IMG/VR virus record: IMGVR_UViG_3300015263_000944
Coordinates: 1 to 43,394 of that record
Source of the DNA: a virus
Reading direction: 5' to 3' (one strand)
DNA: 43,394 nt
Made by a program: the position numbers and the translations under genes. The notes under the pieces are model-generated. The model did not search any database. It saw only the letters and a list, made by a program, of their open reading frames with translations, and was not told the DNA's origin. This document shows, in pieces, positions 14,862 to 16,914 of this stretch; the stretch's first letter is position 1; every line of letters starts with the position of its first letter.

Positions 14862-15139
14862 CGCATCTCCTTAATCGTCTGAGTCCTGAAACCGATGTCG
14901 AGATTGTGGAAACTCTCTTGGATCTCAGCGATGCAACCCGACTCGATCCATTTGTATGCGGCAGCTTTGTCCTTGAAGAGAACAGGATAGTAGATCGCAA
15001 CATCCCAATGATGCTCGCCGTAACACAACACGCCACGCTCGGGATGATAGACGGCGGCAGCATCGCTGACCTTCAACTCATCACGATGCTGGTGGCAATC
15101 CCATCGTTCAGTCACAGGGGTTGTGGTGTCCGTGCTCAT
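14858..15139 (-). CDS. hypothetical protein
   Basis: Track ORF 14858..15238 trimmed to ATG 15139 (MSTDTTTPV), 32-nt overlap with upstream stop at 15108. Confidence 0.4.
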   Translation of the reverse strand: MSTDTTTPVTERWDCHQHRDELKVSDAAAVYHPERGVLCYGEHHWDVAIYYPVLFKDKAAAYKWIESGCIAEIQESFHNLDIGFRTQTIKEMR

Positions 15140-15521
15140 AGAAATACTTGTTCCGCTTCCTGAACTTGCCGTTGACCCAGAAACCCCAGATGCGGTTCTC
15201 TGGGCCGGTGAGAAGAATGCTCCAACAACCTTTCTCATCGACCTTTACTGAGTGACGATGAAGAGCCGGGCGAAAGCGAAGCGAACCTGCTCGCACCCGG
15301 TCCTCCCCATCCGGTGACACATCAGTATAACCGCCCCAAACCACAAAAGTCCAGAACCACCAAGGGTGATCGTGCGGATGGCGAAGGTCATCGCTTCTCA
15401 ACCAGTGATGAATACGGATTGAGAAGAAGTAGAAATCGAAGACCCATCGCACCAAGTAAGGGCAGTCTTCGGGACCGAGCTTTTCTCGCCATCGCCATTT
15501 GCTGAAGGGGTTCTACGACAT
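15108..15521 (-). CDS. aromatic-rich conserved hypothetical protein (HDHPW motif) whose third codon is an in-frame TAG
   Basis: Track ORF starts at TTG 15455. In the same frame upstream I read ATG(15521-15519) TCG TAG(15515-15513) AAC ... with SD GAGAGGA 5 nt before the ATG and no other stop before the TTG. Confidence 0.45.
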
Positions 15522-15920
15522 TTTGTCCTCTCAATTCAGAATTGCAGCGCACTTTCGTCCTAGAGGGAAGAACGTGAAAAGTTTCCCGTTCTCACTCGTA
15601 TGCAGAGCATCCCAGTTAAGGCCCTCCAGTAGTAGTTGTAGAGGGCACCTCAAACACGAAAGGAACGCCATGAATTTCACCGCCAAAGACCGTTGGAAAG
15701 CATTCTGGAGGCTTTACCGTATCTCCAAGAAGGAACACCATTTGGATGCCTATGGGGCTTTCCAAGTTCTCTTCTGGAACAACTATAAAATGTTCCAGTG
15801 GCTCTGGGTCGCCGAAAATGGCGACTGTCGGGCACCACAACTGAGCCTGTCACAATGTATTCGCCTCTGGCGGGCCGGGTGCCGCAACCCATATTTGAGG
15901 CAACGAATTTGGGGACCAAA

Positions 15921-15992
15921 AGGGCGTGACGGGAATCGAACCCGCAACCGTCAGATTTAGAGTCTGCCGCTCTGCCGTTGAGCTACACGCCC
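15921..15992 (-). tRNA. tRNA with anticodon CUA (amber suppressor); amino-acid identity undetermined
   Basis: Minus-strand read GGGCGTG-TA-GCTC-AACGGCA-GAGC-G-GCAGA-CTCTAAA-TCTGA-CGGTT-GCGGG-TTCGATT-CCCGT-CACGCCC-T. 7-bp acceptor, canonical T-arm, anticodon loop C32 U33 C34 U35 A36 A37 A38, U discriminator, CCA not encoded; one 27-43 mismatch. Confidence 0.65.
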
Positions 15993-15996
15993 AAAG

Positions 15997-16032
15997 TTTA
16001 GTTGCGACTTTCAATTGAAAGTCGCAACTAAA
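15997..16032. repeat. perfect 36-bp palindrome tttagttgcgactttcaa|ttgaaagtcgcaactaaa between tRNA-CUA and the next tRNA-like element
   Basis: Second half is the exact reverse complement of the first half (checked base by base). Confidence 0.7.
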
Positions 16033-16041
16033 TTCTTTCAG

Positions 16042-16179
16042 TCCGAGGTGGAGGATTCGAACCAACGACCTCCCGTTTGTCTGGCAGCCCTTGCTCACAT
16101 CCTCTGGCGTCCCTTTGGATGCTCGCTCCGGGGTGATCACTTCTGCCACGGGTGCTCTAACCAACTGAGCTAACCTCGG
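16042..16179 (-). tRNA. atypical tRNA-like element (138 nt): canonical acceptor and D-arm, TTCGAAT T-loop, but about 64-nt insertion between anticodon-stem strands and two mismatches in T-stem
   Basis: Acceptor CCGAGGT/ACCTCGG, D-arm GCTC-AGTTGGTTA-GAGC, anticodon-stem candidates CCCGT...ACGGG separated by 71 nt; T-stem GTTGG/CCTCC pairs only 3 of 5. Could be an intron-containing or degenerate tRNA. Confidence 0.3.
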
Positions 16180-16183
16180 ATAG

Positions 16184-16265
16184 CGGCAGCGTCAGGAGTC
16201 GAACCTGAACTTATTGTGAGGGCCTTCAAGGGAGGGCTTCTCAGCATCCTCCACCCCATGCTGCC
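16184..16265 (-). tRNA. tRNA-like element (82 nt) with good T-arm (TCAGG-TTCGACT-CCTGA) and acceptor pairing; D and anticodon arms not resolved by eye
   Basis: Acceptor GGCAGCA/CGCTGCC (or 8 bp CGGCAGC/GCTGCCG); the GGTTCGACTCC T-loop is what I recall for selC-type tRNAs. Length suggests a long variable arm. Confidence 0.3.
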
Positions 16266-16275
16266 GTGACCGGAA

Positions 16276-16296
16276 ATGTCCGGTTTATGGCCGGAT
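16276..16296. repeat. two copies of the ATGTCCGGTT-like unit (atgtccggtt tatggccggat)
   Basis: Read directly; same unit as the tandem array at 16369-16398. Confidence 0.4.
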
Positions 16297-16368
16297 GCGA
16301 AAATCATGTCACAGATGATTTGTCGGTTTCAATCACATCAGTTACAAAGAATCGCAGTGATTGGGCCA

Positions 16369-16398
16369 ATGTCCGGTTATGTCCGGTTATGTCCGGTT
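16369..16398. repeat. three perfect tandem copies of 10-bp unit ATGTCCGGTT (plus a degenerate fourth) between PTH2-like gene stop and the tRNA cluster
   Basis: atgtccggtt atgtccggtt atgtccggtt tctggccgga read directly. Confidence 0.6.
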
Positions 16399-16408
16399 TC
16401 TGGCCGGA

Positions 16409-16783
16409 TTATGCTGCTTCCTTGATACCTCCTTCCTCATGCTTGAGGAGTTGATACTTACGGAAGAGCGAACGCTTATCGTCGAACTCGTTGATCGGTT
16501 CGGTAGCGATGGCCGTAAGCTGATGATCCAGATCGGATTCGTAGAAGTGAACAAAGCGAACTTTGTTCTGGAACAGGTACTTTGTGACCCGTGCCAGTTT
16601 GGCTTCGTTCTTGGCTGCCAGCAGGACGATATGAGGATGATCTGGCAGATTGCCGAGATCAAACATCTTGGCAGCTTCAATGGCCGCATGAGAGCTTTGC
16701 ACGGCCTGTTGAGCGGGTGTAAGGTCTTGCCTTACAAAGATGTAAACGTAGTTCTTGTCGGACTCGTTGCAGTTCTACAACAT
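16409..16783 (-). CDS. PTH2-family peptidyl-tRNA hydrolase-like protein whose third codon is an in-frame TAG
   Basis: Track ORF 16409..16702 starts at GTG with QSSHAAIEA (what I recall as the PTH2 catalytic motif). The same frame continues upstream as ATG(16783-16781) TTG TAG(16777-16775) AAC TGC AAC GAG TCC GAC AAG AAC TAC GTT TAC ATC TTT GTA AGG CAA GAC. This restores a NYVYIFVRQDL beta-strand like the PTH2 N-terminus. Strong SD AGAAGGAGAAGGAAACC precedes the ATG. Confidence 0.5.
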
Positions 16784-16914
16784 GGTTTCCTTCTCCTTCT
16801 GAGGATTGTCATTTTGGCAGGTCACTTGCCTGCCGTAAGATATAGTAGCATCCTCCGTGCCAATTATCAACAGAAAAAATGGTGGGAGTCAGGAGTGCCC
16901 CGACCCCCGCCATT

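Follow-up and report, generated by a model that had tools for sequence, protein, structure and literature searches.

Why would a phage keep an in-frame amber codon at the third position of two genes and place a tRNA with the matching CUA anticodon between them? The question is raised by a locus at 15108-16800 of the viral contig IMGVR_UViG_3300015263_000944, which was analysed over its whole length of 43,394 nucleotides (nt) and is referred to here as the window. One of the two genes encodes a relative of the peptidyl-tRNA hydrolases with the PTH2 fold (the PTH2-like gene), and the other encodes a small cupin. The locus is quite probably one copy of a widespread phage module, in which a suppressor tRNA is combined with a PTH2-fold gene (here also with the cupin gene) and an early stop codon cognate to the tRNA gates translation. 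Gating of translation by the suppressor tRNA is strongly supported by the anatomy of the locus, its conservation, the genomic linkage of its parts, the match between stop codon and anticodon, and the exchange of TAG for Gln codons among relatives; that suppression actually takes place is what we infer from these sequence patterns. The elements that make up the proposed gate are as follows.

16788-16799, minus strand: Shine-Dalgarno (SD) sequence AAGGAGAAGGAA, 4-6 nt before the ATG of the PTH2-like gene (from the sequence; SD score, 6)
16409-16783, minus strand: PTH2-fold gene of 124 codons, beginning ATG TTG TAG AAC and ending in TAA (Pfam PF01981 below the cut-off, homologues, and AlphaFold2 and Foldseek)
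16775-16777, minus strand: in-frame TAG, codon 3 of the PTH2-like gene (from the sequence)
15921-15992, minus strand: tRNA with anticodon CUA at 15958-15960, without an encoded CCA (ARAGORN, Rfam)
15526-15532, minus strand: SD sequence GAGAGGA before the cupin gene (from the sequence and an SD scan)
15108-15521, minus strand: small cupin gene of 137 codons, beginning ATG TCG TAG AAC and ending in TGA (phrog_4786, AlphaFold2 and Foldseek)
15513-15515, minus strand: in-frame TAG, codon 3 of the cupin gene (from the sequence)

The initial annotation had placed a tRNA-CUA between two genes whose third codon is TAG, and this description was borne out in all its parts. The tRNA is the sole canonical tRNA of the window, and ARAGORN and Rfam agree on its position and on the anticodon (CTA in the DNA). 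It matches Rfam family RF00005 over its full length with 67.7 bits (gathering score, 29) and forms a canonical cloverleaf with a 7-nt anticodon loop, CU-CUA-AA, which contains U33 and a purine at position 37. It is ~80% identical to the tRNA-Trp genes of mycobacteriophages and to the 'tRNA-TERM' of Stenotrophomonas phage DLP_5, all from cultured phages, and a blastn search of the whole locus against cultured phages matched nothing except this tRNA. The tRNA and both protein genes are encoded on the minus strand, with the PTH2-like gene upstream and the cupin gene downstream of the tRNA. Both leaders have the form SD-ATG-NNN-TAG: the leader of the PTH2-like gene reads cagaAGGAGaAGGAaaccATG TTG TAG AAC, where the SD part AAGGAGAAGGAAACC is followed by ATG, and that of the cupin gene reads GAGAGGAcaaaATG TCG TAG AAC, where GAGAGGACAAA is the SD part and ATG again follows.

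The Pfam PTH2 profile aligns from residue 13 of the PTH2-like gene and the PHROG cupin profile from residue 10 of the cupin gene, and the first ATG, GTG or TTG past the TAG is found 25 and 20 codons on, respectively, inside the conserved fold. Because the conserved domains begin upstream of any later start codon, the SD-preceded ATG two codons before the TAG is the only credible start of either gene.

The two sites are exceptional in the window by their context and not by the codons themselves. The bare pattern ATGNNNTAG shows no enrichment (8 observed versus 9.1 expected), and when the two strands of the 43 kb were scanned for an SD, an ATG, up to 10 codons, a TAG and a long open frame, only the PTH2-like and cupin sites were left in a credible gene context. 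Other candidates were rejected: the site at 547 (minus strand), the only other match with any SD, has a GTG 11 codons upstream and a 74-codon frame with no gene support; that at 33527 lies between genes and precedes a normal ATG; that at 38990 is a frame shadow inside a carbamoyltransferase gene; and those at 22200 and 25799 have no SD. TAG terminates 12 of the 56 candidate open reading frames (ORFs) of the window, one of them a PARP-like gene in which the Pfam domain reaches exactly to the TAG. The phage keeps TAG as an ordinary stop elsewhere and is not globally recoded, a check that covers these 43 kb, which are without obvious structural genes. The source is probably a jumbo phage, and the contig family reaches ~235 kb.

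The label 'peptidyl-tRNA hydrolase', given to the first gene in the initial annotation, holds for the fold of the product and is less apt for its details. The protein, for which 30 homologues were found, scores 17.1 bits against Pfam PF01981, under the cut-off of 23, and several of the homologues do carry this domain. Its AlphaFold2 model has a predicted local distance difference test score (pLDDT) of 91, with a mean of 79 over the first ten residues. The best PDB matches of the model in Foldseek were 3erj, 2zv3, 1q7s and 1xty (probability, 1.0; template modelling (TM) score, 0.6-0.7), representing archaeal Pth2 and human Bit1, and the alpha/beta fold of Pth2 is present; a PDB profile search matched 24bt_A (7e-7). 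The motifs Q..HA and TA.A..P (the Thr/Ala motif) are kept as in Pth2, and two canonical loops are shortened or lost. Because phage CBB (see below) encodes a separate canonical PTH2 (gp587) besides its PTH2-like protein, the latter can be regarded as a subfamily distinct from canonical PTH2. The cupin gene matches phrog_4786 (2e-34) and has 154 homologues with E-values down to 7e-76. Its model (pLDDT, 95) is a double-stranded beta-helix with a His-rich metal motif, in which H35, H47, H49 and H87 are invariant, and its best Foldseek matches are the Mn-cupin TM1459 and oxalate decarboxylase; the product is predicted to be a small metal-binding cupin.

The early TAG is conserved among the close relatives of the locus. 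In contig L003 (81% protein identity), the PTH2-like gene begins ATG ACT TAG GTA and the cupin gene ATG ACA TAG CTG; in L085, a 234-kb IMG/VR contig, TAG is codon 6 of the PTH2-like gene and codon 2 of the cupin gene (ATG TAG), with a tRNA-CUA between the two; and in L004 it is codon 7 of the PTH2-like gene. The TAG is thus kept across these three contigs while the flanking codons vary, and an early TAG was found in 10 of 10 metagenome relatives. For a wider survey, searches of viral contigs with a single protein were empty and those based on alignments productive, and in the metagenomes alignments A1 and A2 were too diverse and A4 worked. The alignment-based scan of IMG/VR yielded 80 loci with a PTH2-like gene, which, together with the window, L003 and L004, represent 74 distinct loci; these range in GC content from 21 to 67% and lie on contigs, many of them partial, of up to 572 kb.

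A stop was counted as strictly early when it was in frame, followed an ATG and preceded the first beta-strand, no further ATG intervening. Such stops, 2-11 codons past the ATG, are present in 42 of the 74 loci, and they are located at codon 3 in 22, at codon 4 in 7 and at codon 5 in 4 of them. A suppressor tRNA is encoded within ~6 kb in 55 of the 74 loci, and CUA is the commonest anticodon near PTH2-like genes (49 of 255 tRNAs). Of the 64 loci with any tRNA, 49 have a suppressor as the tRNA nearest to the PTH2-like gene; the median gap is 534 nt, and the two genes almost always share a strand. The type of the early stop follows the anticodon of the local suppressor in every case, with 27 TAG/CUA, 4 TGA/UCA and 1 TAA/UUA pairs and no mismatches (P ~1e-6 given the margins). 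TAG codons are also concentrated at the beginning of the genes of this family: 37 are early, and the 3145 domain codons contain 5 internal ones (P = 3e-31). The base after the early stop is A in 21, G in 17, C in 4 and T in none of the 42 genes. U at position +4 is the strongest termination context in Escherichia coli, and the missing T is consistent with selection for read-through at these stops. Taken with the exchange of TAG and Gln described below, the conservation of early stops and their match to the anticodon support the core claim of the initial annotation, that translation of both genes depends on the adjoining amber suppressor.

The same arrangement was found in cultured phages. In Pectobacterium phage CBB, the PTH2-like gene begins ATG GCA CAA TAG AAT, the coding sequence gp573 (NC_041878) is annotated from a downstream start and is therefore truncated, and an annotated 'tRNA-Pyl anticodon CTA' is encoded ~4 kb away. 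The gene of Acinetobacter phage ME3 (NC_041884 gp266, truncated in GenBank) begins ATG ACT TAG ATT and has a tRNA-CUA 0.5 kb upstream. That of Salmonella phage Arash (OQ632216 gp84c, also truncated in GenBank) begins ATG CTG TAG AAC, nearly the leader of the window, and a tRNA-CUA labelled tRNA-Phe in GenBank is located 1.3 kb downstream (49176-49247). In Xanthomonas phages XacN1 and Xoo-sp13, the PTH2-like gene is fused to an HD-like domain, and an SD-bearing ATG is followed by AAG TAG in XacN1 (ORF364) and by AAG AAG TAG in Xoo-sp13, the annotated start in these phages being a downstream ATG without an SD; XacN1 probably belongs to the cultured phages with the early-TAG arrangement. Klebsiella phage RaK2 provides a contrast, with an ordinary start and no suppressor nearby.

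Which amino acid would be inserted is suggested by near-identical proteins that differ only by TAG versus Gln. These include MPHT*NCNKNYVYIFVRED (L172-L174; asterisks denote TAG) and MPHTQNCNKNYVYIFVRED of P0004, MKFT*NEKLGLKEDPYLTR (L087) and MKFTQNEKLGLKEDPYLTRW of P0058, and the cupin N-termini M*KWHWNQ (L085) and MQKWHWNQ (P0031). Where the PTH2-like protein of the window has ML*NC, P0018 begins MLQNF, and P0004 (TQNCN) also has Gln there. The exchange recurs within the domain, where PP*IQHPH in L020 corresponds to PPQIEHPH in L006. From these pairs, TAG is likely to be read as Gln. This reading fits a CUA tRNA derived from tRNA-Trp; the su7 suppressor of E. coli is charged mainly with Gln. 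A second in-frame TAG at this one loop position (..PP*..HPH), ~34 codons past the first beta-strand, was observed in L008, L013, L015, L020 and L032.

In the proposed mechanism, a ribosome would initiate at the SD-preceded ATG, make a dipeptide and meet the TAG. Without the phage tRNA-CUA, termination or loss of dipeptidyl-tRNA would leave no useful product; with charged tRNA-CUA, the TAG would be decoded, most likely as Gln, the full protein would be made, and its amount would track suppressor activity. The early position of the stop may be favoured in that the abort product would be tiny (a di- to decapeptide) and any inserted residue would be tolerated in an unstructured N-terminal tail, and also in that release factors may act poorly on very short nascent chains. 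As to the purpose, our best guess is demand-matched expression, i.e. that the need for a peptidyl-tRNA-hydrolase-like activity would scale with suppression: peptidyl-tRNAs and stalled ribosomes would be generated by early drop-off and by reading through the genuine TAG stops of both phage and host. Peptidyl-tRNA drop-off is described as frequent in the first codons and its product as recycled by Pth (PMC10192219, PMC2490762).

A further possibility, which we regard as doubtful, is suggested by analogy: together with the suppressor tRNA and the PTH2-like protein, the early cognate stop may close a feedback circuit by which the extent of nonsense suppression in the infected cell is set, with a logic like that of prfB. 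In such a circuit, the PTH2-like enzyme would act on the aminoacyl- or peptidyl-tRNA of the suppressor or on ribosomes waiting at the stop, and its own early stop would measure the result, while the HD-like, cupin and GatB/YqeY-like neighbours would share in a suppressor-maintenance system.

Several points weigh against gating by the suppressor tRNA or against the role proposed for it. The purpose is its weakest step and is a guess. Compared with canonical Pth2, the PTH2-like protein lacks the GK loop and six DAG..T-loop residues. About 20 PTH2-like loci pair the suppressor tRNA with an ordinary start, and gating is frequent but optional across the family. Ten early-TAG IMG/VR loci and L003 show no suppressor tRNA within the partial contigs examined; ARAGORN with default settings found no tRNA in L003 and L004, and Rfam identified three tRNA-like genes in the 11-kb L003, none of them with anticodon CUA. 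Because the contigs are partial, such loci neither support nor refute gating, and the suppressor may lie far off, as it does in CBB (~4 kb away) and in XacN1, where it is found in the terminal repeats. Finally, a codon for Val or Ile (GTN/ATH) comes directly after 25 of the 42 early stops, a possible hint of near-cognate re-initiation.

This last point leads to an explanation in which the TAG is a real stop, ATG-NNN-TAG is a two-codon leader ORF, and the protein arises by re-initiation or from a non-canonical start just downstream. The codons in question are ATT, ATA or GTN, and in XacN1 and Xoo-sp13 an ATG is present 4 codons past the TAG. Re-initiation does not, however, predict that the type of stop tracks the anticodon (TGA with UCA and TAA with UUA) or that TAG and Gln are swapped in otherwise identical N-termini; both genes of the window continue with AAC after the TAG and have no ATG, GTG or TTG for 20-25 codons, and in the family stops occur up to codon 11 and some genes carry two. 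We consider this explanation unlikely. A bar-like minigene, in which SD-ATG-NNN-stop makes a dipeptidyl-tRNA that drops off and thereby sequesters a host tRNA and the frame behind it is incidental or secondary, would account for the modal layout of an SD, ATG, one sense codon and a stop (22 of 42) in front of a gene that is itself a peptidyl-tRNA hydrolase relative, and early drop-off with recycling by Pth is an established process (PMC2490762, PMC10192219). The stop is nevertheless in frame with a conserved domain that begins a few codons on and has no other start, it matches the suppressor anticodon, and positions up to codon 11 occur. We consider a minigene of this kind quite unlikely as the explanation, and such a role is compatible with gating by the suppressor tRNA.

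If TAG were reassigned to Gln throughout the genome (genetic code 15), the two TAGs would merely be two among many sense TAGs and would have no regulatory role. Phage TAG recoding with CUA suppressors is well documented, and a minority of PTH2-like homologues carry the second, mid-domain TAG noted above. Against this stand the ORFs of the window that end in TAG, the PARP-like gene among them, the finding of no further in-frame TAG in the 43 kb, and the crowding of the family TAGs into the first ~10 codons, with the Gln codons of the conserved domain essentially never TAG; CBB, ME3 and Arash, moreover, are annotated with the standard code. Coding coverage, compared crudely under codes 11 and 15, did not separate the two. 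Code 15 is therefore a very unlikely explanation. As for decaying pseudogenes or assembly errors, nothing was found in their favour beyond the fact that gene callers and GenBank annotators do truncate these genes. The arrangement recurs in more than 50 independent assemblies and in four cultured genomes, with intact downstream frames, high-confidence models and conserved residues, so that an origin by decay or error has almost no probability. Translation gated by the co-encoded suppressor remains the reading that we favour.

Genes of other families also appear to be clients of such stops. A third family of ~190 amino acids (phrog_14850), with the motifs HDCGKP, FPNHAE and EIHSNA, shows an M-x-TAG start in five loci (L005 6335, L018 5449, L058 5406, L061 4796 and L077 5047); Pfam and NCBIfam gave it no name beyond a weak HDIG hint. 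Its domain adjoins the PTH2-like gene and is fused to it in L018, RAS14 and XacN1 ORF364 (L169 2449). The cupin family carries an early TAG in ~10 of ~70 distinct viral loci, and its genes usually lie 90-135 nt downstream of a same-strand tRNA gene. Cupin ORFs are often overextended by gene callers across the T arm of the tRNA, which results in artefactual 'GSNPxPR' N-termini (P0041, P0044, P0054, P0086 and others; L089-L127). A second gene of CBB (L168 46304, ~308,300), which overlaps the annotated gp518 and directly follows a tRNA-Gly, has the SD-ATG-NNN-TAG form and begins ML*NPSTG. A gene annotated as 'glutamyl-tRNA amidotransferase' is found 1-2 kb upstream of the fusion gene in both Xanthomonas phages (XacN1 ORF360, L169 833-1276; Xoo-sp13_324, L182 18145-18591), and a paper on crAss-like phages lists an aminoacyl-tRNA hydrolase and an Asp/Glu-tRNA amidotransferase together. 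The amidotransferase-annotated gene may be linked to the charging of a Gln-inserting suppressor.

The remaining features of the locus are located upstream of the two genes or between them.

16884-16908, minus strand: terminator-like hairpin with a T-run, closing the upstream transcription unit (consensus scan)
16842-16870, minus strand: sigma-70-like promoter, TTGATA-17-TACTAT with a TG, 5' of the PTH2-like gene (consensus match only)
16369-16398, minus strand: three tandem AACCGGACAT repeats and one more copy at 16266-16275, flanking the tRNA cluster's promoter-like site (from the sequence)
16303-16332, minus strand: second promoter-like site, TTGAAA-18-CATGAT, ahead of the tRNA cluster (consensus scan)
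16183-16266, minus strand: degenerate tRNA-like element, in which acceptor and T arms are present and the central part is aberrant (ARAGORN at a lowered threshold)
16041-16179, minus strand: tRNA-Val(GAC)-like gene whose anticodon loop carries a structured insertion of 64 nt (ARAGORN with option -i)
15997-16032, no strand assigned: perfect 18+18 nt palindrome between the tRNA-like gene and the tRNA-CUA (from the sequence)

The insertion of the tRNA-Val-like gene has a homologue in L003 (7128-7267). Common to both are GCAGAAGU, a palindrome (GUGAUCAC or GUCAUGAC), a CCCC/GGGG pairing and a hairpin whose conserved loop is AAA(U)GGGACGCCA, and the predicted nested fold is identical in the two, with compensatory changes; the insertion matched no Rfam family. 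The tRNA-Val-like gene of L003 scores 49 bits with the Rfam tRNA model, and the T stem is weak in the copy of the window. In the degenerate element, the acceptor and T arms are good and the D and anticodon region is aberrant; the 3' half of the element is kept in L003 (~6845-6890). A match to YrlA (Y RNA-like; 18.6 bits versus 69) was rejected as the T arm of one tRNA-like gene adjoining the D arm of the next, and a reading of one tRNA-like element of L003 as a tetraloop decoy was likewise rejected, the Rfam alignment giving a normal 7-nt loop with anticodon UCG. The 36-nt palindrome may serve as a site of processing or of protein binding or as a terminator. The AACCGGACAT repeats, which bracket the promoter-like site ahead of the tRNA cluster, have the look of an operator array for some regulator, and the repeats CCGGACAT and GCGGACAT of L003 (6206-6260 and 6335-6360) present the same motif in the same place.

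The 400-nt gap between the tRNA-CUA and the cupin gene holds a plus-strand ORF of 86 codons (15671-15930). It has an SD-like site, GAAAGGAA, runs at its end into the 3' end of the tRNA-CUA and is uncalled in the annotation of the Joint Genome Institute. Elsewhere, the window encodes a protein with WGR and PARP catalytic domains, an RNA ligase (PF09414; 29427-30140), a NUDIX protein and a weak 2H-phosphoesterase match, these features being listed at 26630-28294, 29427-30140, 18819-19454 and 19779-20405, all on the minus strand. Nothing observed here supports the role in counter-defence or the tie to the RNA ligases that the initial annotation had considered. An ArdC-like/MPTase protein, a sigma-70-like factor, a carbamoyltransferase and a radical-SAM/SPASM protein are also encoded.

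These results, among them the recurrence of the pairing in dozens of unrelated phages, suggest an undescribed way for phages to tie the translation of genes to their own suppressor tRNA. In PMC and bioRxiv, whose coverage is incomplete, so that an earlier description elsewhere is possible, neither a PTH2-like partner nor early cognate stops were found described; the phage literature does cover recoding, code change modules, theta ribozymes adjoining suppressor tRNAs and the tRNA introns of jumbo phages. Suppressor tRNAs are common in standard-code phages and their targets are an open question, for which the early-stop genes are proposed as concrete natural targets. Searches for C-terminal read-through miss such stops, and gene callers truncate the genes, as in CBB gp573, ME3 gp266 and Arash gp84c. 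An SD-ATG-NNN-stop leader with its cognate tRNA would constitute a compact and portable translational gate, and the tight genomic partnership between a suppressor tRNA and a divergent PTH2-fold protein is unmentioned in the accessible literature on phage recoding. The arrangement may also bear on the evolution of recoding, as a suppressor with a few dedicated client genes could precede any genome-wide reassignment, and cultured Salmonella, Acinetobacter and Pectobacterium phages allow direct tests of it.

Among known systems, recoded phages (codes 15 and 4; Ivanova 2014, Borges et al. 2021/2022) likewise use a phage suppressor tRNA that makes stop-bearing genes translatable, with TAG read as Gln, and regulation of expression by suppression has been proposed for them. 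They differ in that many late genes carry stops throughout and the stop does not terminate, whereas here TAG is kept as a stop and two genes adjoining the tRNA carry it at codon 3. The published 'code change module' consists of a tRNA and an aminoacyl-tRNA synthetase together with a release factor, and a PTH2-like partner and an early-codon position are unmentioned. Jumbo phages of the XacN1 type resemble the window in having CUA suppressors under an otherwise standard code. XacN1 has two of them, and in silico read-through of 18 amber stops gave no potential target genes; targets were not identifiable in that study, in which only C-terminal read-through was examined (PMC5852040). Pth2 (PF01981; human Bit1/PTRH2) shares its fold and the motifs Q..HA and TA.A..P with the protein of the window, which differs in its Pfam score below the cut-off and in the missing GK-loop and DAG..T-loop residues. 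The prfB gene, for release factor 2 (RF2), has an early in-frame UGA whose outcome reports termination or decoding capacity (PMC12421855), and also represents a translation-related gene with a conserved early in-frame stop, as do the PTH2-like genes in 42 of 74 loci. In prfB, the escape is a +1 frameshift and the gene senses its own product, whereas here the proposed escape is by a co-encoded suppressor tRNA. The bar minigenes of phage lambda sequester tRNA through peptidyl-tRNA drop-off. They share with the leaders described here the series of SD, AUG, one sense codon and stop, and both are tied to drop-off and to peptidyl-tRNA hydrolase (PMC2490762), as are toxic minigenes. The bar minigenes are free-standing, with a toxicity that depends on limiting Pth, whereas the leaders of the window are in frame with a conserved protein and their stop is cognate to a co-encoded suppressor.

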